Below, piece by piece: positions 6,933-32,628 of a stretch of 34,033 bases of DNA (its first letter is position 1; each line of letters opens with the position of its first letter). A program made the position numbers and the translations under genes. Location of the stretch: positions 1-34,033 of the forward strand of contig JBDREQ010000019.1 in assembly GCA_043819555.1 (NCBI GenBank), given 5' to 3'. A model generated the notes under the pieces. The model made no database searches. It saw nothing but the letters and a program-made list of their open reading frames with translations, and was not told where the DNA came from. The DNA comes from Candidatus Zixiibacteriota bacterium. GTDB taxonomy: Bacteria; Zixibacteria; MSB-5A5; GN15; JAAZOE01.

Positions 6933-6948
6933 CAATATTCTCCTTCTA

Positions 6949-8244: not shown

Positions 8245-8320
8245 TTGACCTACTCCTCATTGTGGACTGACATCATCCAAGATGATTGACAAAACAGCCA
8301 CATACCGCTGCCAGAAAATT

Positions 8321-8653
8321 CTAACGGGCTGCAACCTTTCGAGCTTCCCTAACGTTTGCTCTAAGAACATCCTCAACACAGCCAAAGAATTTCAAAATGC
8401 AGGGCATTCTAAGATTGTACCAGACCTGTAGCCCCCGTTTCTCATCTTCAACGATCCCAGCTTGCTTTAATACCGATAAATGTTTTGAGACGGTCGAGAT
8501 ATCGACTCCGATCATATCTCGGAGTTCACAAACGCACCGTTCACCCTTTGAGAGTTCATCGACAATGAACAGCCTGGTAGGATGCGCCATGGCCTTGATG
8601 ATCTGTGCTCGGGCTTCGTATTTCTGTTTAGTTCTGCTATCCATACTCATCAT
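8321..8653 (-). CDS. arsR: ArsR/SmtB-family metalloregulatory repressor
   Basis: KAMAHPTRL...ERCVCEL...STVSKHLSVLK; CVC metalloid-binding motif plus two C-terminal Cys. The start could be 8653, 8650 or 8644. Confidence 0.9.
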   Translation of the reverse strand: MMSMDSRTKQKYEARAQIIKAMAHPTRLFIVDELSKGERCVCELRDMIGVDISTVSKHLSVLKQAGIVEDEKRGLQVWYNLRMPCILKFFGCVEDVLRANVREARKVAAR

Positions 8654-8673
8654 TATACCTTTATCCGCTTTGT

Positions 8674-8709
8674 TAGTTGGCAAAATAACCAAATACTATA
8701 AAATGTCAA
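8674..8709 (-). promoter_or_regulatory. Putative arsR promoter with overlapping ArsR operator
   Basis: Minus-strand TTGACA (8709-8704), 16-nt spacer, then TATTTT (8687-8682). An imperfect inverted repeat TAGTTGG-N8-CCAAATA (8674-8695) covers the -10 box. Confidence 0.55.
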
Positions 8710-9027
8710 TAGGAAGTTTTCTGAGAATGAGATTTAGTTTGGATATATGTGGCAACCGACTCGCAGTCAAAAGAATATAAAAAACGCGAACTTCGAGACG
8801 AGTTCATCAACGGGGTTAAAGGAATTTCATCGGCGTAAGAAAAAAAACTATCGTAAAATGTGAATGACCGGGGAAGAAAGTTCTGCAAATAGTTGGTGTG
8901 TATAAAGAAATGTTTTATATTCACTGCCAAAGAGATGGTTTGGCAAATATGACTGTGCCATTAATGTTTAGATAACATATGATTTGTTACGGGGAAAATA
9001 TGAAATGAAAAGAAAGGGAACGACTAT

Positions 9028-10146: not shown

Positions 10147-10155
10147 GAAGCCACA

Positions 10156-11007
10156 ATGAAGAAATTGATGTTGATAATTCTGGCATCGGCAATAGCGGCA
10201 AGCGTTGTAAGCGCCGGATCAAACATTACAATTAAGGGCTCTGACACGCTTGTCAGACTCGGTCAAAGGTGGGCCGAAGAATATATGAAGAAAAATACGG
10301 AAGCTGTTATCCAGGTTTCGGGCGGTGGTTCCGGAACAGGGATTGCGGCTCTCCTAAATGGCGCTACCGATATTTGCGAAGCTTCCCGGGATATGAAAGA
10401 AAAGGAATACAAACTGGCTGAGCAAAAAGGTATCAAACCCTATCGGATTTCAGTGGCACTTGATGGAATAGCTGTTTTCCTAAACGAGAAAAATAAAATC
10501 AAAAATTTAAACTTTGCCCAACTTAAGGGTATTTACACTGGCGCTATTACCAATTGGAAAGAAGTCGGCGGAAATGATGCCAGGATTATTATTTATAGCC
10601 GCGAAAACAATTCCGGAACCTATGCTTTCTTCAAGGAAGAAGTATTGAATAAAGAAGATTATTCGGATTATACACAGACTCTTCCCGGGACAGCCGCCGT
10701 TGTTAACGCCATTGCCAATGACAAAAACGGTATCGGTTATGGCGGCATTGCCTGGGCTAAAGGTGTAAAATACGCTTCCGTTGCCAAGGATGAAAAAAGT
10801 GAATATGTCGAGCCTTCTACTGAATCTGTGTCCGATGGAAGTTATCCGATTTCAAGAGATTTGTACTGGTTTTTTAATGGAAAACCTGCCGGTGAATTGA
10901 AAAAGTTGGTTAATTGGGCATTATCGGAAGAGGGTCAGAAGGTCGCCGCTGATATTGATTACGTCCCGCTTTCCAAAGAACGGGCAATGGCAAGTTTGAT
11001 AAAATAG
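10156..11007 (+). CDS. pstS: Phosphate ABC transporter substrate-binding protein
   Basis: IKGSDT, GGGSGTGI, SRENNSGT, YPISRDLY motifs. Confidence 0.95.
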   Translation: MKKLMLIILASAIAASVVSAGSNITIKGSDTLVRLGQRWAEEYMKKNTEAVIQVSGGGSGTGIAALLNGATDICEASRDMKEKEYKLAEQKGIKPYRISVALDGIAVFLNEKNKIKNLNFAQLKGIYTGAITNWKEVGGNDARIIIYSRENNSGTYAFFKEEVLNKEDYSDYTQTLPGTAAVVNAIANDKNGIGYGGIAWAKGVKYASVAKDEKSEYVEPSTESVSDGSYPISRDLYWFFNGKPAGELKKLVNWALSEEGQKVAADIDYVPLSKERAMASLIK

Positions 11008-11022
11008 GAATCAAATTCTTCT

Positions 11023-11991
11023 TTGTCTAAAATGAAAGAATTGAAGTTCAAACCAAAATCACGTCTCGGGGAATTCATTGGCGAGAAGTTTATTGCCATA
11101 AACGCATTTGTCGCGCTAATAGCGATTGTCCTTATTTTTGTATTCATTTTTAAGGAAGCAATTCCGATATTTACCGATCCCGAAATTCAGGAAGAAGTCA
11201 CTCTGGACAAGATGATTTTCAAGCAGGAATTTTATGAAGGCCGTGACGCCAAATGGTCATGGCAGCCAAATTCAGAGGTCCCCAAATATTCATTATTTGC
11301 CCTGTTTATCGGGACTATAAAAGCCGCAATAATAGCCATGTTGTTTGCCGCGCCTCTGGGGATCGGGGCCGCCATATATTCATCGGAGTTTGCCGGAAAA
11401 CGGCTTCGGGAAATCATCAAACCGGTTATCGAAATGCTGGCCGGGATTCCTTCGGTAGTCCTGGGTTTTTTCGCATTGATTATTCTGGCGACTTTTCTGC
11501 AGGATTTATTTGGATTGACCTTTCGATTAAACGTGTTAAATGCCGGAATTGCTCTCGGCATAGCGGTCATTCCGATAATTTTCACGATAGCTGAAGATGC
11601 AATGACTTCGGTTCCGCATTCTCTTCGCGAAGCCGCGACGGCTCTGGGTGCAAATCAGTGGCAGGTATCATTTACGGTAGTTTTGCCGGCGGCGCTTCCC
11701 GGAATATCGGCAGGAGTCGTATTGGGATTCGGCAGAGCTATCGGCGAAACGATGATTGTACTTATGGCTTCAGGAAATGCCGCCATCATATCAGCAAATT
11801 TTCTGGATTCTGCCAGAACTTTTTCGGCTACGATCGCCGCCGAATTGGCTGAGGTCGTTTTCGGGAGCGGGCATTATACCGTCTTGTTTTTCATCGGCTC
11901 GCTTTTATTCATTTTCACTTTTATAATAAATCTCGGCGGTGAGATGATTTTAGCTCGGATAAAATCCAGATTCCAGGGGAAAATGAATTGA
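11023..11991 (+). CDS. pstC: Phosphate ABC transporter permease PstC
   Basis: LAGIPSVVLG, REAATALGA, GFGRAIGETM. The start may be the ATG at 11032. Confidence 0.95.
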   Translation: MSKMKELKFKPKSRLGEFIGEKFIAINAFVALIAIVLIFVFIFKEAIPIFTDPEIQEEVTLDKMIFKQEFYEGRDAKWSWQPNSEVPKYSLFALFIGTIKAAIIAMLFAAPLGIGAAIYSSEFAGKRLREIIKPVIEMLAGIPSVVLGFFALIILATFLQDLFGLTFRLNVLNAGIALGIAVIPIIFTIAEDAMTSVPHSLREAATALGANQWQVSFTVVLPAALPGISAGVVLGFGRAIGETMIVLMASGNAAIISANFLDSARTFSATIAAELAEVVFGSGHYTVLFFIGSLLFIFTFIINLGGEMILARIKSRFQGKMN

Positions 11992-12953
11992 TGGCGACTA
12001 AGGAAAAAACTACAGGCATCAATCTTGTTGCTGCAAATGATCTGCAGTTTAGCCCAAAAACTCAAGGGTATGTTCCGCGCGGATTGACTCTTGCGGCGGT
12101 AATAATAATCATCGTGATGCTGGCGATTATTTTGGGCAATATAATATATGGTGGGGCCGGAACCATTGATTGGGAATTCTTATCACATCCTCCCGAAAAC
12201 GGAATGGAAGCCGGCGGAATATTTCCCGCGATTTTTGGAACTGTGTTTCTGGTAATACTTATGGTAATTGCGGTTGTTCCGGTAGGCGTTTTTACGGCAA
12301 TTTTTTTGCATGAATACACTTCTCCCTCGTCGAAACTGACAAGATTAATAAGAGTGGCAATTAACAATCTGGCCGGCGTGCCATCGATTGTTTTTGGGCT
12401 CTTTGGCCTGGGGTTTTTCATTGCCTTTATTGGTGGGGGGCTGGATTCAATTTTCTATGAATCGGAAGGACCCGTGTGGGGACAGCCTGCTATTATTTGG
12501 GCGTCGCTGACACTGGCATTACTAACCCTTCCGGTGGTCATTGTCTCGACCGAAGAGGCTCTGAGAACCATACCGCGCGAATTAAAGGAAGCGAGCTACG
12601 CTCTTGGAGGTACAAAATTACAGACGATAGCCCGCATTATTATTCCTCAGGCTTTGCCGGGGATTCTAACCGGAGCCATATTGGCGATTAGTCGCGGTGC
12701 GGGCGAAGTTGCGCCAATTATGTTTACCGGGGCGGCCTATTATTTGCCGTATTTACCATCGAAGCTAAACGATCAATTTATGGAAATGGGTTATCACATC
12801 TATGTCATGGCGACTCAATCACCCGACATTGAAGCTACTAAACCGATATTATATGGGACAGTGCTGGTTTTATTGATTCTCACCTTCCTATTGAATTTTA
12901 TTGCAGTATACATTCGTTCAAGCATGAGGAGAAAACGTGCAGGCATACAATAA
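11991..12953 (+). CDS. pstA: Phosphate ABC transporter permease PstA
   Basis: [28 protein letters not shown]; the ATG overlaps the pstC stop (TGATG). Confidence 0.95.
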
Positions 12954-13749
12954 TTCAGCAAATGGATCATTAAAAATTGATCAAGAAAATAAATCTGAAT
13001 ATAAGATGACCGTGAATGACCTAAATTTCTGGTACGGGGCCAATAAAGTACTGCATAATGTTTCGCTTGATATTCAGGAACACAAGGTAACGGCGTTGAT
13101 TGGGCCATCAGGATGCGGAAAATCAACGTTCCTCAGGACATTGAACAGAATGAACGAAACTATCCCCGGAACAAGGATGGAGGGAACTATAAAACTGGAT
13201 GATATTAATATTTATTCAGACATTAAAGACGTTTCCCAAATTCGAACCAGAATCGGCATGGTCTTTCAGAAATCGAATCCATTTCCAAAATCAATCTTTG
13301 ACAATATCGCCTATGGCCTAAAAGTTAACGGGATTAAAAACAATAATCTCATAGCCGAAGTGGTCGAGGAATCTTTGATTCAGGCGGCTTTGTGGGATGA
13401 AGTCAAAAATAATCTCGATAATAGCGCCTATATGCTGTCTGGCGGACAGCAGCAAAGACTCTGTATTGCCCGCGCCCTGGCTATAAGACCGGAAGTGATT
13501 TTGATGGATGAACCGGCTTCGGCCCTGGATCCTATTTCAACTTCCAAAATTGAGGATTTAATCGGAACATTAAAAAAGAAATATACGATAGTTATTGTAA
13601 CCCATAATATGCAGCAGGCGGCGCGAGTATCAGATTACACGGCCTTCTTTTTTCAGGGAGATTTGGTTGAATTTGGACAAACTAAAGAAATATTTACGAG
13701 ACCCCGCAAGAAAAAAACTGAAGATTATATAACCGGGCGTTTTGGATAA
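12937..13749 (+). CDS. pstB: Phosphate ABC transporter ATPase
   Basis: [48 protein letters not shown]. Confidence 0.97.
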
Positions 13750-13764
13750 ATAAAAGAGGATATC

Positions 13765-14427
13765 ATGACAAAACACTTTCAGAATGAAATAGAAAGATTG
13801 AAGAAGAAAATTCTTCACCTCGCTGCAATGGTTGAGGAGAGTTTGCAGATTGCTGTAAAATCCATAATGGAATATGACATTGTCCGGGCTGATAAGGTTA
13901 TAGAATCTGATCCAAAAGTTGATTCTCTTGAAGTGGAAGTAGAAGAAGAGTGTCTAAAAATACTGGCCCTTCATCAGCCGGTCGCGGCCGATTTAAGATA
14001 TATTATCGCCGTTTTGAAAATAAACAATGACCTTGAGCGAATTGCCGATCTGGCTGTCAATATTGCCGAAAGGACTAAAACTGTGGCACGGCATCCGGAT
14101 GTAGAGATACCTTTTGATCTGCATAATATGCTCAACATTACCGTTGAGATGGTTAAGGACAGTGTTGATTCACTTGTTACCAGCGATACTCAAAAGGCAA
14201 TTCAAGTAATAAATGATGATGATAAAATCGATGACCATGATGCCAATGCTTTCAATTTAGTTCAAAAGCAGATTAAAAAATATCCCGAGTATTCTGAATA
14301 TTATGTCAGCCTTCTAAGTGTTTCGCGAGATCTGGAACGGATTGCTGATCATGCCACAAATATTGCCGAGGATGTGATTTATATGATTGACGGAGAAATA
14401 GTCCGACATCAAAATAAATTGAAGTGA
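13765..14427 (+). CDS. phoU: Phosphate signalling protein PhoU
   Basis: QPVAADLR plus the duplicated DLERIAD-x-A-x-NIAE motifs. Confidence 0.96.
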   Translation: MTKHFQNEIERLKKKILHLAAMVEESLQIAVKSIMEYDIVRADKVIESDPKVDSLEVEVEEECLKILALHQPVAADLRYIIAVLKINNDLERIADLAVNIAERTKTVARHPDVEIPFDLHNMLNITVEMVKDSVDSLVTSDTQKAIQVINDDDKIDDHDANAFNLVQKQIKKYPEYSEYYVSLLSVSRDLERIADHATNIAEDVIYMIDGEIVRHQNKLK

Positions 14428-14502
14428 ATAGTCAAATCCGGGGTTGATAGAAAAAGAATGATATTGACCGGGTAAATAATATCACCATAAATGAAAATGC
14501 CG

Positions 14503-14572
14503 AATCAATAACTTATAGGTAGACAGGCCCAGAATAATATGGTGGAGCTCCTTATGGGAATTTTGCGAATAT
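14503..14572 (+). repeat. Dispersed att-like motif, family A copy 2 (degenerate), with an IHF-consensus site
   Basis: TGGTGGAGCTCCTTATGGGAATTTTGCGAA at 14540 aligns without gaps to the family. AATCAATAACTTA (14503-14515) fits WATCAANNNNTTR. Confidence 0.45.
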
Positions 14573-14699
14573 TCACAATTTAAAACAATTTATGGTGGTC
14601 TAAGAAAATATTTGTTATGAATATTGTTCCTCCTATATTTAAAATACAAAAGCAAACAGTCTTGACGACGAATTGAAGTTATTTATACGGGATACAATT

Positions 14700-15170
14700 A
14701 TGAACTTTCGACCTGCCACAAAAAATGATCTCAAAACAGTTATGTCATGGATACCGGATGCTGAGACATGTCTTATCTGGGCGGGACCCAAAATCAAATT
14801 TCCTTTAAAGTTGAAACAATTACATCAAGCTATCGAGTTCGAAAAGACTCACACTTATTCTTTTGATGATGAAAATAAATTACTGGCCTTTGGTCAGATC
14901 AGAATATTTGAAAATAACAGAGGACATTTATCTCGAATAATCGTCAATCCAGCTTCAAGAGGCCAGGGTATCGGTCGGTTGTTTTGCAAAAAACTAATCA
15001 ACGAAGCCAAAATACTTAAATGCCAAATAATTTCATTAAACGTCGTTAAAGATAATTCTATAGCGAAAAGTCTTTATAAAAAGCTGGGTTTTATAATACC
15101 ATCCAAGCGGCCAGCCGAAATCCGAGAAAACATCATCTATATGGAACGGGGAAAGACTAATCGCAATTAA
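14700..15170 (+). CDS. GNAT-family N-acetyltransferase
   Basis: FRPATKND start, IIVNPASRGQGIG acetyl-CoA motif and N-x-x-A-x-x-LYKKLGF. Confidence 0.9.
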   Translation: MNFRPATKNDLKTVMSWIPDAETCLIWAGPKIKFPLKLKQLHQAIEFEKTHTYSFDDENKLLAFGQIRIFENNRGHLSRIIVNPASRGQGIGRLFCKKLINEAKILKCQIISLNVVKDNSIAKSLYKKLGFIIPSKRPAEIRENIIYMERGKTNRN

Positions 15171-16523
15171 TTAATCTATCGCCATTATATCTTGTTCCCC
15201 TCGTTTGATATCGAATCGGTTTGGTTCGGGATCGACATTCAATTTTATTTCTAAATGATTGATAATCTGTTCTCCAATATTATGTGCCACTTTTTGAAGT
15301 GTTGGATGCACAAACCTGGAATCTCGAATTTCCACCATATAAACTGTCGCCGGCAAATCTCCCGTAAATCTATTCGAAGTATTATATCCTATCGGTATAA
15401 AATATTGTTGTTGTTCTCTCGGAATTTTCAATTCACCGATTACCTTTTTAATCATTTCTAAATGTTCCGGCAGTTTTTCTCTTACTTTATCCGGAAGATT
15501 ATCAATATACCATTGATTAAATCCCAGTTCGGTGGTAAGCAGGGGCATCCGTTGAGTTATCGCACGGTGTCTTTGAATATCTCTAAAGGAACCAAAATCT
15601 AATTGATATTTAATATCAAGAGTGCCTATTTGCCCAACATATTTCGGAAGTCCTGTCTTGGGAGGCCTTTTCTTGAAAAGCTCACTACATTTTTTCAATT
15701 CATCATGATTAATATTGCTAAAATTAATTTCTGGTTCATCGGGGCATTCAGGATCATAATAATAATAATTTTCCGCTATTAAGTCTTGATATGCTTCAGT
15801 ATCTTCAGGTATTTCATGCCCAAAAGAATGAGGGTGGTGTTTTTGAAGCGCTTCTTTTATGGCTGAAGCCATGTTTCTAACTTCAGGTAAAGGATGATGC
15901 ATTAAAAATAGCAATTTATCGGCTGCCTGCCTGAGATCCGTATGCCAGGCAAAATTCGTCGAAGCTCCTGCCGGAAGAAGACTTCTGGTAATATCAAAAG
16001 TCCGGGCATCTATTGCTTTTTCATAGATAGATTTTTTTTCTCGTTCGTTTCTGGGATGAAGTATTTTTAAACACTCTCTCGTCGGTTCTTGAGCATCAAT
16101 ATAGAATTGTCGTTGCCTTTCTAACAGGGTCTTTCCTTCTTTTGTCTGGGTGGGATCAATAAAGGACTGCTTTGAAAAATCAAGATACCTTGTAGAAGAT
16201 TCCTGTCCTCTATAAAGAGGGTTATCCTGAACCGCTTTTACCGCGGGCATAGATACGCCTTCAATGAATATTGTCGTGTCTCCACAATCGCCTATTGAAT
16301 GATGTCCATAACCGACATAGAATTTCTCCATAAAATTGTCGGCCCCTTTTTCGGCCAGGATTTTCAAATGACTTTTCAGGCCCTCGGTAGAACGTGAATG
16401 CAGGGCCTGCAGCATCGCTTCCGCCTCGGCATCAATAACGGCACCGGTATCAAGGATGATTACCTCTCCACCGCCTTTAATATTTACTTTTGTATGTTTT
16501 AAATCAGAAAGACTTTTGGCCAT
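15171..16523 (-). CDS. thyX: FAD-dependent thymidylate synthase, long two-domain ThyX type
   Basis: YGHHSIGD, QESSTRY, RSLLPAGA-x-TN and RDIQRHR motifs; 450 aa is about twice a canonical ThyX. Confidence 0.8.
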   Translation of the reverse strand: MAKSLSDLKHTKVNIKGGGEVIILDTGAVIDAEAEAMLQALHSRSTEGLKSHLKILAEKGADNFMEKFYVGYGHHSIGDCGDTTIFIEGVSMPAVKAVQDNPLYRGQESSTRYLDFSKQSFIDPTQTKEGKTLLERQRQFYIDAQEPTRECLKILHPRNEREKKSIYEKAIDARTFDITRSLLPAGASTNFAWHTDLRQAADKLLFLMHHPLPEVRNMASAIKEALQKHHPHSFGHEIPEDTEAYQDLIAENYYYYDPECPDEPEINFSNINHDELKKCSELFKKRPPKTGLPKYVGQIGTLDIKYQLDFGSFRDIQRHRAITQRMPLLTTELGFNQWYIDNLPDKVREKLPEHLEMIKKVIGELKIPREQQQYFIPIGYNTSNRFTGDLPATVYMVEIRDSRFVHPTLQKVAHNIGEQIINHLEIKLNVDPEPNRFDIKRGEQDIMAID

Positions 16524-16665
16524 CGTTATTCCTCTAAATCAATTTTGGTAAGAAGAAAGGCATATTTCGTTCACGGTCAAATATATAATGGAAATATTTA
16601 AATGGCTATGAGAAAATAACACTTTCAAAACATTAATTTAGGGTCAAACTCACTTGGTTGACCAT

Positions 16666-16760
16666 CCCAAGATCACACTCCCCATACTTTTGTGGAATTC
16701 AATGTTTAGGTGGAAACAGCCTATGTGACAACAAGCGAAACTCTTTGGAGGGGAATTGGA
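16666..16760 (+). repeat. ~95-bp dispersed repeat, family B copy 1
   Basis: Ungapped manual alignment to 17421-17515 gives about 59/95 identities. Confidence 0.65.
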
Positions 16761-16779
16761 TACAATCAGCCTAAATTTT

Positions 16780-17280
16780 CTAAGTCTTATATTCATCTTC
16801 CAGGATTGAATAGCATAGAAGATCGGTAAACTTATCTCCAATAATAATTGCCTCTCTCATGACTCCCTCTTGCACAAATCCGACTTTCTTTATAAGACGT
16901 TCCGAGCGATCATTACCCAGGGTAGCAACAACCCATACACGGTGCATATGAAGGGCATCAAAAGCATACTCCAACATCCTCTTGAGTACAAATTCTCCAA
17001 TTCCTCTGCCCCAGTAGTCAACCTCACCGATTATCAATATCAACTCGCACTTGCGATTTTTCTCGTCTATTGATTCCACGGCGGCATAGCCAATAATTCG
17101 GCCATCGTCAATAACGGCCTTTAGCCATATTTTGGGATGGGTTTTGACCTTATTAAACCATGCCTCGGCTTCTTCTTTCGATTTAAGTCGATTTGATAGA
17201 TGGCGATTGACAATTGAATCATTTCTCCATCGCACTACAGCATCTAAATCATCTACCATTAAATCACGAAATTTCGTCAT
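16780..17280 (-). CDS. GNAT-family acetyltransferase (RimJ/RimL type)
   Basis: RWRND, IGEVDYWGRGIG, N-x-RS-x-RL-x-x-KVGFVQEGVMRE. Confidence 0.9.
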   Translation of the reverse strand: MTKFRDLMVDDLDAVVRWRNDSIVNRHLSNRLKSKEEAEAWFNKVKTHPKIWLKAVIDDGRIIGYAAVESIDEKNRKCELILIIGEVDYWGRGIGEFVLKRMLEYAFDALHMHRVWVVATLGNDRSERLIKKVGFVQEGVMREAIIIGDKFTDLLCYSILEDEYKT

Positions 17281-17416
17281 TTGCATTCTCTCTTGTAAGA
17301 TATTCTTCATTTCCCGAATTACTCGCGCTATTTCCGGCTATCTCTTTTAAAATAAATTGGTTGCGCCAAGACTTCAATAGAAATGTTCGACCCATATCTT
17401 ACCCTTGAGTATATAA

Positions 17417-17511
17417 CGGCCCCAATATAACCCTCCCCAAACTTCTGTGAACTTCCAGTTTCCAGTGCGGTGATACTATGCCACCATCAATAGAACTTGA
17501 TGGAAGACAAT
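17417..17511 (+). repeat. ~95-bp dispersed repeat, family B copy 2
   Basis: Ungapped manual alignment to 19327-19421 gives about 71/95 identities. Confidence 0.8.
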
Positions 17512-17602
17512 TGAATGCTGATAGTCACTTGTCACATTTTACCAATTTGTAGTTCAAATCATAAAAACTCTTCTCTTATAACCAACGTGATTTCGATAAT
17601 AT

Positions 17603-18339
17603 CTAAATAATGGGTAATTTCCCGGTAATCAGGTAATTGACAATTGTGTAGATAATCCCCCCGATCGCACCACCGATGTTTGCCAGTATATGAACGGCAA
17701 TGGCAGGAATGAGACTGCCGGTTTTTGCTCTCAGGTGTCCGGCCATAAGACCGATCGACAAGGTGAAAAAGAAAACTACGACCATCGTAGTCGCATCAAC
17801 TCCTGCAAACAGTAGCACGAAATGCATGCACGCGAAAAACAGTGCGCTGATCAAAACAGGCAGCTCAATACGCACGAAGAGCAACCTGAAGTACTTACCT
17901 GACAAGACAGACAGATGTCCCCGGAGGAATCCACGCGTGAACACCTCTCCTATTATGCTAGAGAAGATCCACACGAACAACACTATCTGGAGAAAAGTAA
18001 GACTCTTGACCAGAGGATTTCCATTTCCACCCAGTGCAAAAATCCGGGTGTTGCGACTATGCCCAGCAACGGCGCGATCAAGCTGATTCGTATCCATCGG
18101 GTTTTGGCTTTTACGAACTGCTGACTTGCTCTTGGCCGACAAAAGCCGTATTCAGAAAACTTACTCTTACCAAAGACCACTATGGCCAGCAGTGAAAGAA
18201 TTAATTCCAATCCCTGTATTGTCATCAATCCCGGAAGTACACTGGAAAATATTAGCTTTGGTAGTACTATTGCTATTACATATATCCCGATTGCAACCGA
18301 TAGTGCCGTGGTGACCTGGGAAGTATTATTGGTGGCCAT
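17603..18339 (-). pseudogene. CPBP (CAAX/Abi) intramembrane protease, frameshifted near 18045
   Basis: The N-terminal half lies in ORF 17983-18369 and the C-terminal half (FTRG, FACMH, AVHILAN) in ORF 17603-18142. The span is 737 nt, one base short of 246 codons. The catalytic EExxxR motif reads GEVFTR. Confidence 0.75.
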
Positions 18340-18481
18340 AAACATGCTCTCCTTACATATAATAGTCATAATACTCGCCGCGACGCATAGTGATAACTTC
18401 TGCCTCGACCATTTCCGTTTACTTGTTGCGGGAGTATTCGGAAACCAAAAAATTAGATATACATTGAGCTTTCAATATCAA

Positions 18482-18514
18482 TGGCGGGGATCAATAGACG
18501 AATTTTGCGACCTT
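18482..18514 (+). repeat. Dispersed att-like motif, family A copy 3
   Basis: TGGCGGGGATCAATAGACGAATTTTGCGACCTT has 27/33 identities with 31070-31102. Confidence 0.7.
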
Positions 18515-18648
18515 TTAAGATATTAATGGGTCACTACAGCTGTAAATGAATTGGCAAAAGAACTTGTTAAATTGTGAAGTTTCGTAAATGCTTGCGGATT
18601 TTCGCCAAACCAAAATAAATTTTCTATCCCCGATACCTACGGTAACTG

Positions 18649-19029
18649 CTAATTCCATCCGCCGTTGGTTGTGCGCAATATTGTGCCATTTCTTCCAACC
18701 GTAGTGCATTTGTTGGCATCAGTAAGACTTACACCTAATAGATCCTTGCTCGTACCGCTCGTCTGGATCTTCCAGGAAGCACCGCCGTTGTTTGTCCGTA
18801 ATATTGTGCCATTTTCTCCAACCGCAGTGCCGTTGTTGGTATCGGTGAAACTTATAGCATAAAGATCATTCCCTTGTGGAATGGGGTTTTGCCAGAACCA
18901 CCCAGTTTTACCCTCTCCAGGCTTGGCAGGACCAGTCGGATTATCGCCGGAACAACTCAACAGTAGTATTACAGCAGCCGATACAATCGCCATGAGAGAT
19001 GGACGATTATAAACCTTTTTGTGATTCAT
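18649..19029 (-). CDS. Short lipoprotein with two YCF48/BNR-type repeats (possibly truncated)
   Basis: Lipobox LLLSC; WFWQNPIPQGNDL; repeats AVGENGTILRTNNGG and TVGRNGTILRTTNGG. Confidence 0.75.
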   Translation of the reverse strand: MNHKKVYNRPSLMAIVSAAVILLLSCSGDNPTGPAKPGEGKTGWFWQNPIPQGNDLYAISFTDTNNGTAVGENGTILRTNNGGASWKIQTSGTSKDLLGVSLTDANKCTTVGRNGTILRTTNGGWN

Positions 19030-19326
19030 TGGAATTTCTCCTGAGCCTGTACATCACTTTCCTGCCTGCAGTCAGCTGTATTCTTGCCAGTCCTAATAGG
19101 TCTTCACCGTGGTTTCACTTGATTAATTGTTGTCCAAAGGGAATTTGTGCAAATCAGAGTTCATGCTCTTGTCATTGTCCAGATGTTCAGACACAAGCAT
19201 ATCCCTATTGACCTTAACAAAATAAACAAAAATATGTGATTCATCAACAATAAATATGGTTAAATCAATCTCTGAATAGTGTTGCTCCACTTAAAAAAAA
19301 CCATTGCAATGGCATGAAAGTCAAAG

Positions 19327-19421
19327 CGGCCCCAATATCACTCTCAGAAAACTTATGTGACCTTCCAATTCGATGTTCAGTTACACTATGCTGCAGTCAA
19401 TGGAACTCGTTGGAAAACAAT
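19327..19421 (+). repeat. ~95-bp dispersed repeat, family B copy 3
   Basis: About 75% ungapped identity to copy 2. Confidence 0.8.
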
Positions 19422-19471
19422 AAGGTAGTGTAGTCTTTATGGTAAATACGCAGGAGATTTAGATCGTTTTG

Positions 19472-19845
19472 CTATTTCGAATCAGCCAATTTAACCGTTG
19501 CAATAAGCACTTCCGACGAACCAACAGCACGACTTTTGTGTCCCTTTCCAGTAATATCTTCTACAAGGACTATACTACCGGGACCAAATTGCCTTATCTC
19601 ACCGTCTGAGGTCTCTGCTTCTATCTCACCTGACAAGTAAAAATGTATTTGGCGATACGGGGCAGGATGCCAATCGCCGTACCAACCCACAGAACCTTTC
19701 AACAATGAACAAGATTCAGTGGGCCAAATTCCGATAAATTTAATGGAGGGGCAGGCGGTGCAAAATCAATTGACCTGAATTCAACTTCAACATCTTCAAA
19801 ATGTGATTCACCATTTTCATCAGTGTACAACCGCGTATAAGTCAT
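19472..19845 (-). pseudogene. Cupin-domain protein, frameshifted near 19721-19723
   Basis: ATG at 19845 gives MTYTRLYTDENGESHFEDV...APPAPPLNLSEFG; the next frame gives PTESCSLLKGSVGWYGDWHPAP...EDITGKGHKS. The span is 374 nt, one base short of 125 codons. Confidence 0.8.
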
Positions 19846-19866
19846 TGTTTTAATCTCGCTTCTCTT

Positions 19867-20400
19867 TTAGGGCTGGCCGTTTTGAGAAGGAGGCGGGAAA
19901 AACCCTAGTTGTGATAACATTGCGACATTGTCCCAGCTTACCCATGACTCAGCAATCTTACCATCTTCGAAACGGTGGACAATGATATTGACACATGTAA
20001 ATGTCTTGCCAGAGGCAGGGAGTTCTCCCATCACCCCGGTCTGCGTCCCTTTCATTGTTGTAACATATGCAACTTTGTCACTGTCTGCCACGATTACATC
20101 AATTGTCTCGCTGAAATCTGAAACAGCCGAGATGAAATCGCTAACAAACGCCTTCAATGGTTCGCTACCGTACATCTCCTGCAAATCAGGAGGCATTGCC
20201 TGACAATGCCTAACATAGTTCGGAGCCAGAGTTTTATCAAAAACATCCATATTCCCTTTGGCCATCTCTGAATGTACATAGCGAATCGTAGCAACATTAT
20301 TTTCTTCCAAGCTTGCGAGGTCGTTATTTTGGGAACATCCTCCCAGGAAGACCAGCGTTAAAGAAACTACCAAATAAATGACACGTCTACCCATATTCAT
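19867..20400 (-). CDS. SnoaL-like ester/polyketide cyclase family lipoprotein
   Basis: Lipobox FLGGC; DKVA...GTQTG...PASGK...RFEDGKIAESW...MLSQLG. Confidence 0.88.
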   Translation of the reverse strand: MNMGRRVIYLVVSLTLVFLGGCSQNNDLASLEENNVATIRYVHSEMAKGNMDVFDKTLAPNYVRHCQAMPPDLQEMYGSEPLKAFVSDFISAVSDFSETIDVIVADSDKVAYVTTMKGTQTGVMGELPASGKTFTCVNIIVHRFEDGKIAESWVSWDNVAMLSQLGFFPPPSQNGQP

Positions 20401-20458
20401 TGTTCTCTCCTTTCAGATTAGACTCTTAGAGTATATTGATTTAGAGGTCTAATCTCAA

Positions 20459-20526
20459 CAAAAAACCTCCTCTTGCGAGAAGGTCAAATTAAATGGCGGG
20501 GGCTACGAGACGAGCTCTTCAACCGG
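20459..20526 (+). repeat. Dispersed att-like motif, family A copy 4
   Basis: Leader AAAAAACCTCCTCTT-x-CGA shared with 3912; core TGGCGGGGGCTACGAGACGAG at 20494. Confidence 0.65.
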
Positions 20527-20792
20527 GTTATTCAAAATACTGCGGCATAATTCGGACAATCGATTCAGCAGTAAGAAGTTAACAATTTCCGGACTATAAG
20601 GATTATTCGTGAAACTTACACGGTTTGTTTAATTGATCATATTAATGGGCAATTAACTCAAATCGGTTTTCCACCTTTTTGATTAGAAATCGCAATTTTG
20701 AAGCGGCCTATTGCTGAATTTGGGGAAATAGACTATCTTATATGGGATGATGAATGATTTATCTTAGCACAAAATGAAGCCGAGGTATAGTT

Positions 20793-22523
20793 GTGGAAGA
20801 TTTTAAAGCCTCGACCATAAAATACTATTATCGTGATTTTTCTTTAGATTATGCCACCATTTTTAATAAAATGCTTGGCATAGCTAATCTCGGCCTGCCT
20901 CGGGCCGAATTTTTAAGCTGCACTGCCAAAATGCTATTAGATTTATCTGGATGTGACTTCATTGAAATTAGAAAAAAGGAGCGAAAAAAACTTATTCGTA
21001 TTGAAGCCTGTGGTTCTGATAATTATACAGATCAGATCAGTATTATCTCAATGAAGGCTGATGATCATGAGCAAATATTTCCCTGCCTGGATGAAACATC
21101 AGACTTTGAACAGATTTGCGCAGATATCGCTAATGGACAGTTCGTTCCTGAGCTGCCTTTTTATACCAAACAGGGCTCATTCTTTGTAGGCGATACCGAT
21201 AAGCCGTTTGAATTAAGTTCAAAGGCGTGTAAATGGGCTGGAGGACGAACAATCAGAATAAATGGAGAGTTTAGATCTTTGGTCGTTATCGGATTTCAGA
21301 TAGACAGTAATAATCCTGGTTTGGTCATATTCAAAAGCAAACAAAAGATGTTTTTTTCGCAGAAAGATGTAGCGGCTCTGGAAGAGATTGCCAAAATATT
21401 GGGGATGGCCTCCTCTCATCGGAGAGCGCAGGAAGCGCTTCGCGAAAGAATCAAAGAGATAACTTGTCTTTATGAAATAGTCAGTATTGCGGCGCGTCCT
21501 AATATCTCAATGAATGAGATTATCGAAGGAGTTTTGAAAATCCTTCCTCCAGGATGGTTTTATCCCGACATTGCCACAGCTCGGATCACCATTGATGGCA
21601 AATCCTACGCTCTGCCCGATTTCAAGAATTCGTTACAGAGTCTTTCTGCAGAGATTAAAGTCAAAGGGAAAAATCGAGGCAAAGTTGAAGTCGCATACAC
21701 GAAAAATATGCAGGAACTCGACGAAGGTCCTTTTATAAAAGAAGAACGCAGTCTGATAAACGCAATAGCCGATGAATTGGCCCAAATTATTGAGCGCTAC
21801 CAAATACAGGAAGAGCAAAAACAACTCAGAGAACAGCTCCAACACGCGGATCGTTTGGCAACCATCGGGCAGCTTGCCGCCGGAGTGGCGCATGAATTAA
21901 ATGAGCCTCTCAGTAGCATTCTGGGCTTTGCGCAATTGGCCAATAACAATCTGGCTAATTCAAAACAGATAGCGAATGATTTGGAGAAAATTGAATCAGC
22001 GTCTCTCCATGCCCGTGAAGTGGTCAAAAAGCTGGTTGAATTTGCTCATCAGAAACCCCAGCAAAAATCACTGGTCAATTTAAGCCAGATTGTCGATGAG
22101 GGCTTATATTTTCTTGAATCACGATGCGCCAAATCCGAAATCAAATTGATCAGGCAGCTTAAGGAAGATCTACCCGAAATCTATGCTAATAAAAGCCAGC
22201 TATATCAAGTATTGACTAATCTAATTGTGAATGCTATTCAGGCTCTGCCTTCGGGCGGAACGATAACGATTACAACGGATAAATGTGAAAATGGCATTTT
22301 GTTGACCGTATCTGATACCGGTACCGGGATAGAAGAAGAAATAATCGATGAGATTTTTAATCCTTTCTTTACAACAAAAGACATTGATGAAGGTACGGGA
22401 TTGGGTCTGGCGGTCGTTCACGGGATCATAGCAGCAAATAAGGGTACAATTAGAGTCGAAAGTACCGTCGGATGTGGAACTAAATTTGACATATTCCTTC
22501 CGATTGGTGAAATGAAACAATAA
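20793..22523 (+). CDS. Soluble sensor histidine kinase with GAF-like input domains
   Basis: H-box AGVAHELNEP, N-box NLIVNAIQA, DTGTGI, FNPFFTTK, GTGLGL; no obvious TM segment. Confidence 0.93.
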   Translation: MEDFKASTIKYYYRDFSLDYATIFNKMLGIANLGLPRAEFLSCTAKMLLDLSGCDFIEIRKKERKKLIRIEACGSDNYTDQISIISMKADDHEQIFPCLDETSDFEQICADIANGQFVPELPFYTKQGSFFVGDTDKPFELSSKACKWAGGRTIRINGEFRSLVVIGFQIDSNNPGLVIFKSKQKMFFSQKDVAALEEIAKILGMASSHRRAQEALRERIKEITCLYEIVSIAARPNISMNEIIEGVLKILPPGWFYPDIATARITIDGKSYALPDFKNSLQSLSAEIKVKGKNRGKVEVAYTKNMQELDEGPFIKEERSLINAIADELAQIIERYQIQEEQKQLREQLQHADRLATIGQLAAGVAHELNEPLSSILGFAQLANNNLANSKQIANDLEKIESASLHAREVVKKLVEFAHQKPQQKSLVNLSQIVDEGLYFLESRCAKSEIKLIRQLKEDLPEIYANKSQLYQVLTNLIVNAIQALPSGGTITITTDKCENGILLTVSDTGTGIEEEIIDEIFNPFFTTKDIDEGTGLGLAVVHGIIAANKGTIRVESTVGCGTKFDIFLPIGEMKQ

Positions 22524-22538
22524 ATTACGCCTGGGAGA

Positions 22539-23888
22539 ATGATGACAGCTAAAATAAAAGAATCCGTATTAGTTGTTGATGATGCACCCGATACATTGGA
22601 AATATTGCAGCGAAATCTATCTTCAAGGGGATATCAGGTTTTTACCGCTACCAATGTTGCGGAAGCCTTACAATTTATGGGTAATCAACCGATAGATTTA
22701 GTCATTACAGATCTCAAGATGCCCAAAATCAGCGGTACTGATCTGGTTCGCCACGTGAGAGCAAATCTCAGAGATACTGAAATCATGATGATAACCGGGT
22801 ATGCCAGCGTAGAAGGGGCTGTCCAGGCCCTCAAAGACGGGGCTGAAGAATATTTGGCAAAACCCTTTACGGACAGGGAATTGTATGATGCTGTCGAAAG
22901 AATCCTTGACAAGTTAAATACTCGGCGCAAGGCTCAGAAAGAAACCAGCCGAATATCTCCTCCTCTGGGAGGAATGATCGCGCAATCTCCACAAATGCTT
23001 GAGGTTTTCAACTCTATTTCCAAAGCTGCCGCGACATCGGCAACCGTCCTGATTACCGGAGAAAGCGGAACCGGAAAAGAACTGGTTGCTCGGGCCATAC
23101 ATTATAATAGCGACCGCGCTTCATCTTCTTTCGTCCCCATAAATTGCGGCAGTATACCGGAAGGTCTTCTCGAAAGCGAACTATTTGGACATGTCAAAGG
23201 GGCGTTTACGGGCGCTTCGGAGTCGCGGGCAGGTTTTTTTCAAACGGCTGAAGGCGGTACGATTTTTCTTGACGAGATAAGCGAAACCAGTCTTGCAATG
23301 CAAGTAAAGCTCCTGCGCGTTCTGCAGGAAAAAGAGGTAAGCATGGTTGGAGCGAGCCGATCCCGGAAAATAGATGTTCGTGTTCTGGCCGCGACAAATA
23401 AGGACTTAACATATCTGGTCAATAAAGGATTGGTGCGAGAAGATCTCTATTTCCGTTTAAGCGTGCTGACAATACTTGTTCCTCCCCTTCGTGAGCGAAC
23501 TGATGATATATTGCTATTGGCCCGGTTTTTTGGAGATAAGTACGCGGCTGAACTGGGAAAAAAGCCGCCTCAATTCTCCGATAATGCCCTAAAGGTATTG
23601 AAAAATTACAACTGGCCCGGAAATATCAGAGAATTGGAGAATTTAATTCAGCGCATGGTGATTATGATTGATGACGATATTATTGATGTTCCTGACTTGC
23701 CTTCATTAATGCGTTTTACTGCCTCCGGCCAGCGCGATTTGACTCGATCTCTGGCTGATGCGGAAACAGAGTATATTCGTCAGGTTTTGGCATCAGTTGG
23801 AGGTAATAAATCCCGGGCGGCTGAAATACTTAAAATCGATCGAAAAACACTTCGTAAAAAACTCGATTATCTTTCCAAACCAGAATAA
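22539..23888 (+). CDS. Sigma-54-dependent response regulator (NtrC family)
   Basis: Receiver domain (VVDD, TDLKMP), GESGTGKE, GAFTGA, FLDEI, WPGNIREL and a Fis-type HTH. Confidence 0.96.
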   Translation: MMTAKIKESVLVVDDAPDTLEILQRNLSSRGYQVFTATNVAEALQFMGNQPIDLVITDLKMPKISGTDLVRHVRANLRDTEIMMITGYASVEGAVQALKDGAEEYLAKPFTDRELYDAVERILDKLNTRRKAQKETSRISPPLGGMIAQSPQMLEVFNSISKAAATSATVLITGESGTGKELVARAIHYNSDRASSSFVPINCGSIPEGLLESELFGHVKGAFTGASESRAGFFQTAEGGTIFLDEISETSLAMQVKLLRVLQEKEVSMVGASRSRKIDVRVLAATNKDLTYLVNKGLVREDLYFRLSVLTILVPPLRERTDDILLLARFFGDKYAAELGKKPPQFSDNALKVLKNYNWPGNIRELENLIQRMVIMIDDDIIDVPDLPSLMRFTASGQRDLTRSLADAETEYIRQVLASVGGNKSRAAEILKIDRKTLRKKLDYLSKPE

Positions 23889-23900
23889 CTTATGTTTCTT

Positions 23901-23933
23901 GGGGAGTAACTCCCCGCCGGGGAATATATCCCC
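23901..23933. promoter_or_regulatory. Tandem palindromes GGGGA-N5-TCCCC: putative enhancer sites for the sigma-54 activator
   Basis: GGGGAGTAACTCCCC (23901-23915) and GGGGAATATATCCCC (23919-23933), about 155-190 bp upstream of the candidate -24/-12 promoter. Confidence 0.65.
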
Positions 23934-24086
23934 AATAAATAGCTTGTAACTATGCTTCCTTTGCCAGATCAGGCATTCGCCTTAAAAAAAATATGTGAAA
24001 TTTTTCACATTGTCATTCAATGAGTTATGTCTAAATATTTCCAATTAAAACTCTAAAGACTCCCCTATATACTCCTTCTTCGCATA

Positions 24087-24103
24087 CTGGTATGCTATTT
24101 GAT
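24087..24103 (+). promoter_or_regulatory. Putative sigma-54 (-24/-12) promoter with variant -12
   Basis: CTGGTATGCTATTTGAT has correct GG-N10 spacing but GA in place of GC at -12; it lies about 55 nt before the first operon gene. Confidence 0.5.
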
Positions 24104-24158
24104 ACACAAAAGCTGATAGAAAAAATATGTAAATAGAAAAGGCAAGGAGATAGATGAT

Positions 24159-24461
24159 ATGTTAAGTTCTGCTCCACTTGATAGGATGGGTTTATGTTCG
24201 ACCTGTAATAATTCACCGGATTGCGGCTACAGAATGTTAAGAGGATTTGACGCGATTTTCTGTGAGTTATTCGATAACTATACCGCCGGCAGCGGCATTC
24301 AAAGGAACAAAATATCTGTACCCGCCCCCAGAGAGAACAGGCTTTACCCCGCTGCAGTAAACAATGGCTTTAAGGGATTGTGTATAAATTGCGAAAACAG
24401 AAGCGTTTGCTTCCTGCCAAAGCATGAAGGTGGAATATGGCATTGTGAGGAATACCGCTAA
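24159..24461 (+). CDS. Small Cys-rich protein with a duplicated GLCxxCxNxxxC...CE module
   Basis: GLCSTCNNSPDC...FCELF and GLCINCENRSVC...HCEEY; AAGGAG RBS. Confidence 0.8.
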   Translation: MLSSAPLDRMGLCSTCNNSPDCGYRMLRGFDAIFCELFDNYTAGSGIQRNKISVPAPRENRLYPAAVNNGFKGLCINCENRSVCFLPKHEGGIWHCEEYR

Positions 24462-24512
24462 AATAGAGCGGTATAAATTTAGAACCTGATTGATAATTAA
24501 AAGGTAACAAAA

Positions 24513-25364
24513 ATGATCAATACTAATGTTGTTGATGGAGGCAAGAGTGCCTCAAAGGATCAAGGCGGTCTGATATCGACATTGGAAAAAATACAAGCCA
24601 AATATGGCTATCTTCCTGAAGAAGAATTGCGGCGTGTTTCGCAAGATGATGGGTTGTCTTTGGTTGATATTTATGGGGTCGCGACTTTTTATAAGGCTTT
24701 TAGTTTAAAGCCAAGAGGGAAACACCTCATTTCGGCATGTTTGGGAACCGCCTGTCATGTTCGCGGCGGCCCGGTGATTGCCAAAGAAATTGAAAAGCAA
24801 CTGAATATAAAATCAGGGGAGACTACTCCCGATGGTGAGTTCACGCTGGAAACTGTGAATTGTCTTGGAGCCTGCGCCCTTGGGCCTGTCGTTGTTGTTG
24901 ATGGCCATTATTTTTCGAACGTGAAGGCTGGGAGAGTTAAAGAAATAATCGAAAAAACTCTGGAAGGATTTGGAGTTGTTGAAACCATATCAGATCAGCG
25001 CGTTTTTCCGATTGAGGTCAGTTGTGCTCGCTGCAATCATAGCTTGATGGATTCCAATCATATCATGGACGGCCATCCCAGCATAAGAGTTACAATATCA
25101 TTTGGCAACAAACACGGCTGGCTTGTCCTATCCAGTGTTTATGGCAGTGATAAGGTTAATCTTCAATATAAAATTCCCCCTGATACCGTCGTCCAGATGT
25201 TCTGTCCCCATTGCCATGCCGAGCTAATCGGCGGAACTGCCTGCCTCCTGTGCGAAGCGCCGATGGTGCCAATGATTGTTCATGGTGGCGGAATCGTTCA
25301 GATTTGCTCTCGTCATGGATGCAAAGGACATTTGCTGGATTTGGGCGGCTCATCCGTTGCATAG
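24513..25364 (+). CDS. HydC/NuoE-like [2Fe-2S] subunit with a Cys-rich C-terminal extension
   Basis: VATFY, CLGTACHVRG, VNCLGAC; extra domain with CARC, CPHC, CLLC and CSRHGCKGH. Confidence 0.9.
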   Translation: MINTNVVDGGKSASKDQGGLISTLEKIQAKYGYLPEEELRRVSQDDGLSLVDIYGVATFYKAFSLKPRGKHLISACLGTACHVRGGPVIAKEIEKQLNIKSGETTPDGEFTLETVNCLGACALGPVVVVDGHYFSNVKAGRVKEIIEKTLEGFGVVETISDQRVFPIEVSCARCNHSLMDSNHIMDGHPSIRVTISFGNKHGWLVLSSVYGSDKVNLQYKIPPDTVVQMFCPHCHAELIGGTACLLCEAPMVPMIVHGGGIVQICSRHGCKGHLLDLGGSSVA

Positions 25365-25400
25365 GCCGGGTTAAACTTCGCTTTTAGGAGAGATTAATAG

Positions 25401-31102: not shown

Positions 31103-31181
31103 TTGATGACTGAGAATTGCAAAGTTGTTATTCAGCCGTAGAATAACTTCGAACCCATTTTATCAATTTCTTAACAGATAC

Positions 31182-32614: not shown

Positions 32615-32628
32615 TGTATCTTAAATCC

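Follow-up and report, generated by a model that had tools for sequence, protein, structure and literature searches.

The window analyzed here is a stretch of 34,033 nt from a Candidatus Zixiibacteriota bacterium (assembly of 3.35 Mb, designated G000 among the compared genomes). It contains co-oriented repeats, named family B, which are identified below as the terminal coding part of the gene of a large serine recombinase (LSR). A repeat search of the window returned one family with three ungapped 95-nt copies, at 16662–16756, 17417–17511 and 19327–19421, spaced by 755 and 1910 nt. With the middle copy (17417–17511) as the reference, the identity was 60% for the 16662 copy and 75% for the 19327 copy. 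This agrees with an earlier, sequence-only reading of the window, which had noticed three copies free of indels with about 62% and 75% identity. Of the starting positions given there, 17417 and 19327 were right, while the first copy begins at 16662 and not at 16666, and the three translated peptides had been listed in the reverse of their coordinate order. An iterated nhmmer profile search of the entire G000 assembly yielded exactly five family B copies, with E-values from 1e-18 to 1e-25; the additional ones were a fourth copy in the window (5395–5485, plus strand) and a fifth one at C52:9564–9654 (minus strand). Because of these E-values, together with model matches in 39 of 61 related genomes, family B is far beyond chance, and the repeat observation is real. 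The copies of the window were annotated as follows:

5395–5494, plus strand: family B copy 4, the most diverged, 3′ of a DsbD_2-to-ArsR operon (nhmmer score 42).
16662–16766, plus strand: family B copy 1, relic LSR tail with in-frame stops (score 68, translation).
17410–17522, plus strand: family B copy 2, relic LSR tail with two in-frame stops (score 84).
19321–19430, plus strand: family B copy 3, the best preserved, 33 open codons and then a stop (score 90).

Copies 1, 2 and 3 lie 24, 92 and 51 nt, respectively, from the stops of minus-strand neighbor genes, in accordance with the 20–90 nt estimated earlier, and Pfam confirmed these neighbors as GNAT, CPBP and cupin/SnoaL genes.

The coding character of family B was studied with 81 unique extended copies, of which the 72 without net indel were used for the coding analysis. 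In the plus-strand frame proposed by the sequence-only reading, the information content was 1.04, 1.06 and 0.87 bits for codon positions 1, 2 and 3, the third position being the least conserved (Wilcoxon p = 0.026 and 0.016 versus positions 1 and 2). Single-base codon changes from the consensus were synonymous and non-synonymous in the proportion 306:405 in that frame, and 153–256 : 486–603 in the other five. The consensus peptide is RPQYHSPQTFVEFEFPVQLHYATISGTRWKIIK followed by a stop, and 35 of the 72 copies display 33 open codons with the stop at codon 34. Two other coding possibilities were discarded. The minus-strand frame in the same register gave a proportion of 153:558, versus 306:405 in the plus frame, and contained many stops; a small open reading frame (ORF) started by ATG (MAAPISLS...) was open in just 43 of the 72 copies and had no wobble support.

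Upstream of the repeats the frame was open for 0–78 codons, except at one locus, where it was open for 495 codons. An intact 511-aa ORF that ends in ...FKSMRPQYHSPQTFVEFTIEVNTRYSTASGTRWKTIG and a stop contains the repeat as its 3′ end (L007:1501–3036, minus strand, equivalent to G057:C24:16797–18332). The encoded protein is an LSR, since it contains the Pfam domains PF00239 (Resolvase, 1.2e-23), PF07508 (Recombinase, 1.2e-16) and PF13408 (Zn_ribbon_recom, 3.8e-14). A YARVSS motif occurs near its N-terminus, and we take the catalytic serine to be within this motif. Tails attached to LSR sequence were also found in G121:C22 (a 181-codon LSR remnant carrying the family B tail), in G105:C81 (an open LSR frame of 526 codons with a tail diverged yet alignable to family B) and in one further 511-aa LSR from a collection of 5.8 billion proteins, with 80% identity over the tail. 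Counted by eye, about 20 of 64 tail-containing tblastn matches were immediately preceded by 12 or more residues of LSR body. So, family B is the last 33 codons of a serine-integrase gene, with the corresponding coding signature; the relic coding tail supposed earlier is upheld by the codon-position bias, the synonymous excess and the finding of an intact parent gene, for which a search had been suggested. As a side observation, the truncated LSR with a family B tail of L155 (G121:C22:46–4997) comes directly after an imuB-like gene and a dnaE2-like polymerase gene (assigned by eye), which would be a mutagenesis cassette as cargo.

The spread of family B was measured with a sequence-only covariance model, at E ≤ 0.001 for the 61 relatives and at E ≤ 1e-5 for a phylum-wide sample of 151 genomes, which contained only genomes of the class of the window. 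In the latter sample, it was present in 77 genomes belonging to 13 of 19 families. The exact repeat core was found in 34 records, 10 labeled Candidatus Zixiibacteriota (from several submitters), 19 labeled Ignavibacteria, Ignavibacteriales or Ignavibacteriaceae (from one Third Party Annotation series) and 5 others; the composition of the phylum-wide sample agrees better with Zixibacteria. All the copies of a region occupied a single strand in 17 of 17 regions, including 21 of 21 copies on G053:C5 and 14 of 14 on G042:C6. The units delimited by the repeats, considering those under 6 kb (n = 56), had a median length of 1734 nt and a range of 343–5149 nt. Among their ORFs of at least 70 aa, 59 were on the strand opposite to the repeat and 49 on the same strand; thus the convergent layout seen in the window, which had been proposed as the defining unit, is not a rule but incidental, and the candidate orientation rule for cargo was dropped. 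According to Pfam, the cargo of the units includes many S-adenosylmethionine-dependent methyltransferases, resistance-nodulation-division (RND)/HlyD efflux components, P-type ATPase, cupredoxin, multicopper oxidase, BlaR1/BlaI pairs, beta-lactamase-fold, GNAT, SnoaL, glyoxalase, CPBP and BNR proteins and c-type cytochromes, and no recombinase was found by Pfam within the small array units of relatives.

Three arrays abut a tRNA gene, with the repeats oriented toward it. G044:C183 contains tRNA-Val, tRNA-Asp (4548–4624, plus strand) and then six family B copies on the minus strand, from 6908 to 25814; G052:C74 contains five plus-strand copies and terminates in antisense tRNA-Asp; and on G012:C72, a family B copy comes after typA, and 4.8 kb of cargo lead from it to antisense tRNA-Asp, where the contig stops. 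The complete genome G016 has its five copies 46 kb from tRNA-Asp, with an LSR element of another clade in between. The arrays are also polar: the score of a hidden Markov model (HMM), built from the best copies and applied to related, not independent genomes, climbs in the direction of the tRNA in 8 of the 9 arrays that have four copies or more (summed Spearman rho 3.94, permutation p = 0.0014). The window copies follow the same order, with scores of 42, 68, 84 and 90. This polarity fits insertion on the tRNA-proximal side, with older scars pushed outward and decaying.

A larger insert is seen in the island of G057:C24, where 37 kb separate the family B copy at 53487 from the LSR gene (L050, L095 and L096; 18.3–53.5 kb). 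Its cargo includes a type I-E CRISPR-Cas system, a QueC-like gene, two RND efflux systems, ArsR, ArsC and ACR3, and a tyrosine recombinase gene adjoins the LSR gene. The LSR gene is fused to the next family B copy, after which come a czc-like efflux unit and a third copy, in this order.

Concerning the LSR orthologues, homologues were found in 36 of the 61 relatives, and their tblastn alignment to the G057 LSR ended at residues 471–486 in all but G057 itself. An intact, convergent tRNA gene adjoined the LSR gene at 18 of 20 loci scanned (Asp-GTC at 9, Asn-GTT at 4, Ser-TGA at 4 and Gln-CTG at 1). Where the 3′ ends of the loci were inspected, the LSR tails, ...KRGRRDSNSRPPA, ...KLPRLDSNQRPAD and KRG, each before a stop, were the translation of the antisense acceptor and T arm of the tRNA. 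The tRNA-Asp gene of G000 (C67:56221–56298) is itself overlapped by a 517-aa LSR of another clade, which ends in KWRG and a stop. Four types of junction could be compared (the double slash marks the boundary):

LSR to tRNA: ...AAATCAA(A/T)GCGG // GGT(C/T)GACGAGAC
LSR to family B: ...AAATCAATGCGG // CCCCAATATCAC
array to family B: ...TCTATGGCGG // CCCC...
LSR-less flank to tRNA: ...TCTATGGCGG // GGTTGAC

The four types have GCGG alone in common, which corresponds, on the antisense strand, to the final two bases of the acceptor, the discriminator base and the C that opens CCA. Strand exchange probably takes place at GCGG, to judge from these alignments. If so, the tRNA body would never be split and the element would need no copy of the tRNA, which would explain why family B is not a tDNA fragment. 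Because the LSR orthologues run into the tRNA 3′ end and the junctions share just GCGG, family B is best taken as the integrase-distal arm of an attachment (att) site. Unlike the repeats of typical tDNA-anchored islands, family B is not a displaced tDNA fragment: it shares GCGG with antisense tRNA-Asp, and up to 14 nt in a minority variant. The first ~40 nt of family B can be aligned, except for a 7–8-nt insertion, to antisense tRNA-Asp and to the family A motifs described below, and this is how similar half-sites would look.

The second LSR clade (G000:C67 type) was also considered as the partner of family B. It was found in just 7 of the 61 genomes at E ≤ 1e-40, and hence shows no association with family B. 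Its representative L094 (G000:C67:56287–62700) is an element that overlaps tRNA-Asp and carries genes for a ThsB-like TIR protein, a caspase-domain protein, a TrwB/HerA-like ATPase and a PD-(D/E)XK nuclease. LSRs with 87–88% protein identity to that of L094 are present in three genomes of other families (G016, G042 and G043), and L094 therefore looks like a recently spreading element. Another LSR of G000, of the tRNA-Gln type, is cut by a contig end (L098, C31:94800–95232, minus strand); its junction TTTTGGCTGG continues in frame into a MacB-like gene, not into tRNA-Gln.

Besides family B, the window contains a second kind of motif, family A, which aligns to the last ~35 nt of antisense tRNA-Asp. 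An HMM built from its four sites found one more copy in the genome, at C52:7207–7242, on the same strand as the C52 family B copy. Family A had been considered parallel to family B, and it is indeed a parallel kind of scar, a degenerate antisense 3′ end of tRNA-Asp. These sites and the remaining annotated features of the window are the following:

1802–3715, minus strand: typA/bipA, the last clearly core gene before the first att-like motif (Pfam).
3945–3985, plus strand: weak family A-like motif (ATGGCGGGC...) just upstream of typA (alignment; missed by the family A HMM).
14538–14575, plus strand: family A site, degenerate antisense tRNA-Asp 3′ end (repeat search, alignment, HMM).
15171–16523, minus strand: cargo gene of a 450-aa Thy1-domain protein (Pfam).
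16780–17310, minus strand: cargo gene of a GNAT acetyltransferase, the sole gene of the 745-nt unit between family B copies 1 and 2 (Pfam).
17603–18369, minus strand: cargo gene of an Rce1/CPBP protease, split over two overlapping frames (Pfam).
18480–18518, plus strand: family A site between the BNR and CPBP genes (repeat search, alignment, HMM).
18649–19029, minus strand: small BNR-repeat lipoprotein-like cargo gene (Pfam).
19472–20400, minus strand: cargo genes of a cupin (19472–19850, frame broken near 19705) and a SnoaL-like cyclase (Pfam, ORFs).
20492–20530, plus strand: family A site whose first ~17 nt match the antisense tRNA-Asp acceptor and T stem (repeat search, alignment, HMM).
31069–31106, plus strand: family A site (repeat search, alignment, HMM).

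The window thus holds part of an island, at ~3.9–31 kb, with 8–9 co-oriented att-like sites (4 of family B and 4–5 of family A), all on the plus strand. This part starts directly after typA, and the place that matches its motif at 3945 is occupied in G012 by a family B copy. By analogy with the arrays that abut tRNA-Asp, the island would continue to the tRNA-Asp gene on C67. The gene typA was evaluated as a conserved border of the island and rejected, as it was seen in that role in G012 alone, not in G003.

With respect to the cargo, a gene 69% identical to the window CPBP gene adjoins a family B copy in G005. The split frames of the CPBP and cupin genes reflect either decaying cargo or errors in the assembly of a metagenome-assembled genome (MAG). 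Other observations were collected on the window. In the 450-aa protein encoded at 15171–16523 (minus strand), the Thy1 (ThyX) domain is restricted to residues 45–232, and its gene, with 85% nucleotide identity to G003, is better conserved than the adjoining ones. The BNR gene contains an 89-nt internal duplication (18659–18747 and 18782–18870, 80% identity), with many similar repeats in G001:C27; it is BNR repeat structure and not an att site. An IS110-family transposase gene (DEDD_Tnp_IS110 plus Transposase_20) occupies 32835–33821 (plus strand), and a 31-nt inverted repeat pair plus a 37-nt direct repeat (32580–32690) lie ~150–250 nt upstream of it.

The units bounded by the repeats are shared among genomes of different genera and families, as modules that end at the repeat starts. 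G016 and G042 share a module with 88% identity over 949 nt, which ends at −3 and +4 of the repeat starts and is the only one of at least 400 nt that both arrays have in common. A module shared by G042 and G012:C70 ends at +5 and +5, and another shared by G000:C52 and G042 is 74% identical. In the window, positions 15167–16660 match G003:C77 with 85% identity, up to a point 5 nt short of family B copy 1. Concerning the left side of the sites, AAGTCTATGG precedes 12 of 72 copies and a 9-mer like an LSR end precedes 9 of 72, often after a terminator hairpin; otherwise, 19 of 72 left half-sites were classed as "other" and 17 of 72 were merely A-rich. In six metagenome loci with an LSR-end/family B junction, just the last ~4 codons of the LSR precede GCGG (9–54 open codons upstream).

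Additional short sites were observed upstream of some copies. With G000 as the background of the scan, an inverted copy of the repeat core was present at a fixed distance of 43–48 nt upstream in 7 of 70 copies (e.g., L034:1008, L050:3953 and L009:334), with a partly conserved spacer, and downstream inverted cores in 0 of 70. The inverted core plus family B may be the full two-armed site of a subfamily. A further class (GCGGGGTTGAC...CAGAACTTTTC) consists of 12–14 nt of antisense tRNA-Asp followed by ...CAATAGACAGAACTTTTC. It occurs at G009:C54:7934, G030:C4:56932, G044:C183:24913 and G053:C5:7551 and also ~35 nt upstream of at least six family B copies. These short sites look like empty or nested scars.

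Taken together, the results are probably best explained by a stacked accretion of LSR elements at the 3′ end of tRNA-Asp, with family B as the integrase-distal att arm and, at the same time, as the coding sequence of the 33 C-terminal residues of the LSR. When the site is joined (attP-like), the LSR gene would read through GCGG into family B, to end in ...RPQYHSPQTFVEF...GTRWKII. After integration, it would read instead into the antisense tRNA, ending after 2–12 tRNA-encoded residues, and the family B arm would be left at the far end of the insert. Repeated insertion at the tRNA-proximal crossover would push the older inserts outward, and the outcome would be a one-strand array of family B (plus family A) scars, each of them at the head of a short run of accessory genes. 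The identity of the LSR 3′ end, its coding signature, the overlap of LSR genes with tRNA, the abutment on tRNA-Asp, the polarity and the modules that end at repeat starts are direct observations; the position of the crossover and insertion at the tRNA-proximal end are inferred, and the two C-termini of the LSR presumably matter for its function. The interpretation advanced by the sequence-only reading is partly supported: the repeats do bound the units of a gene-accretion system, but the system, considered there as possibly undescribed, is of a known kind, with precedents in the Dehalococcoides ssrA islands and the tycheposons.

Several points weigh against the stacked-accretion explanation. 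The window contig contains no tRNA and no LSR gene, and its link to tRNA-Asp (G000:C67) would hold by analogy with G012, G044 and G052; G003 has typA, but no island there. Family B is present in 10 of 22 genomes with a close LSR orthologue versus 29 of 39 others, and in G035, G015, G045 and G037, which have an LSR at tRNA-Asp, no family B copy was found. The tRNA-proximal modules of G044, G052 and G012 contain no LSR, although the simplest model of serial insertion expects one. Intact fusions of LSR and tail are rare (about three in the genomes), an LSR body was present in none of the six metagenome junction loci, and a scan of viral contigs for the repeat core gave 0 matches. Insertion beside an occupied site (attP × attL-like) is not known to be common among phage-type serine integrases. 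Finally, the polarity carries the limits given with it, and all the data are MAG assemblies, where repeats break contigs.

Two other explanations keep the LSR origin of the repeat. One of them, less probable than the stacked accretion though possible, is that the 0.3–5 kb units without LSR are themselves mobile cassettes, excised as circles and reinserted at tRNA-Asp by an LSR acting in trans. Each unit would keep a complete site (short left half-site, GCGG and family B), so that the platform would be the serine counterpart of integron cassettes and of clusters of attC sites lacking an integron integrase (CALINs). The 56 units with a median of 1.7 kb and no recombinase, the tRNA-proximal units without LSR, and the six metagenome loci with the last ~4 LSR codons before GCGG and no LSR body speak in its favor. 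So do the AAGTCTATGG and LSR-end-like sequences and the terminator hairpin before many copies, the occurrence of one and the same module among different neighbors in different genera, and one cargo gene which follows family B in G021 and a tRNA fragment in G012. Nevertheless, the left half-site is poorly conserved, the LSR remnants on about 20 of 64 copies fit the decay of full elements, differential loss from a shared ancestral array could mimic shuffling, and the uneven occurrence of family B with respect to close LSR orthologues applies here too. The other explanation, which we regard as unlikely, is a pure fossil array, its units being remnants of full-size LSR elements, with nothing mobile at present and repeats devoid of function. 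It would account for the same LSR remnants, for in-frame stops in two of the three flagged copies and in about half of all copies, for the decay of copies with the distance from the tRNA, for the many genomes with arrays but no close LSR, and for the broken frames of the window CPBP and cupin genes. It accommodates badly the modules 74–88% identical between genera or families that end at repeat starts and the survival of short LSR-end half-sites without LSR body, and it would need many independent deletions to end at one junction.

The possibilities that dispense with the LSR fare much worse. Integron arrays and CALINs have one-strand repeats of ~60–140 nt that separate promoterless-looking genes at 0.3–5 kb, often without integrase, and the family B arrays resemble them in their ordered one-strand repeats of attC-like length, spacing of 0.3–5 kb, cassette-like cargo (GNAT, SnoaL, glyoxalase, methyltransferases) and frequent lack of integrase. 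However, that the repeats are unusual attC sites of a tyrosine integron integrase has a negligible probability. RNAalifold on 31 copies from different genomes gave four pairs at −1.09 kcal/mol without covariation for the plus strand and no pairs for the minus strand, so there is no conserved hairpin on either strand; six single-sequence folds had z-scores from −0.84 to +1.54. In a TIGR02249 search, none of five array-bearing genomes (G000, G042, G053, G016 and G030) surpassed the cut-off of 265 bits (best score, 93.6), and the search gave no tyrosine recombinase match on contigs with arrays or, in G016, less than 250 kb away from the array. Besides, the cargo orientation is mixed (59:49), the repeat corresponds to the end of a serine recombinase gene, and the array is located at a tRNA gene. 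The integron explanation is therefore refuted on the defining features tested. These results bear out the earlier remarks that the repeats are not palindromic and have no attC structure, and also settle the proposed comparison of RNA covariation with codon bias, the latter being present and a covarying structure absent. It is very improbable, too, that family B is the end of a miniature inverted-repeat transposable element (MITE) or of an insertion sequence (IS), or an independent small RNA or peptide gene. The repeats are multi-copy and intergenic, an inverted core precedes 7 of 70 copies, and the tail frame is open in 35 of 72. But the whole window gave 0 Rfam 15 matches at gathering scores, no covarying structure was found, the copies keep to one strand per contig in 17 of 17 regions and are clustered at one locus instead of scattered (all five copies of G000 are on two contigs), and there is no conserved start codon, with upstream open frames of 0–78 codons. 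A MITE or IS end or a structured RNA, which the sequence-only reading had named as what would contradict it, thus does not fit the Rfam, folding, strand and clustering results.

Among known systems, the staphylococcal cassette chromosome (SCC) elements, including SCCmec and the SCC composites, are inserted by the serine recombinases CcrAB at the 3′ end of rlmH, in tandem and with direct repeats of ~15–20 bp. They resemble the present system in the use of serine recombinases at the 3′ end of a conserved gene, in the tandem composites and in the occurrence of units without recombinase, but they differ in the protein-gene target, the ~15–20 bp repeats, the large size of the units and the Firmicutes hosts. 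The comparison with SCC was also drawn for the ssrA islands of Dehalococcoides, in the paper on them (PMC3146451). As described there, these islands have the gene of the serine integrase DsiB beside the 3′ end of the tmRNA gene, they are tandem and bounded by 20-bp repeats of the ssrA 3′ end, and they carry strain-specific cargo including CRISPR modules; about half of them have no integration module, and for these, mobilization in cis through accretion was proposed (PMC3146451). In the light of this account, the likeness to the present system is clear, and among known systems it is the closest one: an LSR beside the 3′ end of a stable RNA gene and tandem, repeat-bounded units, many of them without integrase. 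The differences are that the target here is tRNA-Asp (Asn, Ser and Gln for sister LSRs), that the repeat of ~100 nt is the integrase's own coding tail and shares just GCGG with the tRNA, and that the units have a median of 1.7 kb, with up to 21 per contig, in comparison with the several kb to tens of kb indicated for the ssrA islands. The same text describes a second, small recombinase, DsiA, which accompanies DsiB.

The tycheposons of Prochlorococcus are, according to the preprint (bioRxiv 10.1101/2020.12.28.424599), tRNA-anchored elements in which successive integrations push older elements outward, with degenerate integrases, scattered att scars, adaptive cargo and an LSR in 27 of 937. On this basis, the tRNA-anchored island, the outward-pushed scars and some use of LSRs are common traits, while the tycheposon scars are partial tRNAs, the recombinases are of the tyrosine type in 910 of 937, and replication genes and 1–2 elements per genome are reported. 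In the myxophage Mx8, the published sections consulted (PMC6070905 and PMC4383910) place attP inside the intP coding sequence, so that integration gives the integrase a new 3′ end. An att site within the integrase gene that changes its C-terminus is thus a shared feature, but Mx8 Int is a phage tyrosine recombinase, and those sections describe no tail arrays. According to the Islander paper of 2014, no targeting of tRNA genes by serine integrases was known. A literature search, with supplements outside its scope, retrieved no paper in which this repeat, or any serine recombinase of Zixibacteria, is described. The kind of system is known, i.e., serine-integrase accretion at a stable-RNA gene, and what is unusual is that a 100-nt repeat is the C-terminal coding arm of the integrase, that the crossover is probably at the extreme 3′ end of the tRNA, and that units and copy numbers are of integron scale throughout an uncultured lineage.

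As to its meaning, a repeat that resembled an integron without attC is now explained, and both an enzyme family and a chromosomal anchor are identified for a major source of differences in gene content within an uncultured lineage. The system offers the case of a serine integrase whose target is the extreme end of a tRNA gene, which is left unsplit, and, because the att arm encodes the integrase's own C-terminus, integration rewrites the integrase. A bolder proposal, which we hold as doubtful, is that of a serine-recombinase analogue of the integron, spread over at least 13 of 19 sampled families, where a tRNA-Asp platform would capture and exchange cassettes of 0.3–5 kb without LSR by means of the ~100-nt site, this site would serve also as an alternative C-terminal exon of the integrase, and the switch between LSR tails of 33 and 2–12 residues would set the direction of recombination. 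If the small units are mobile in trans, they would represent a second, mechanistically unrelated route to integron-like gene capture, and would offer serine-integrase att sites of compact size whose natural landing pad is a tRNA gene.

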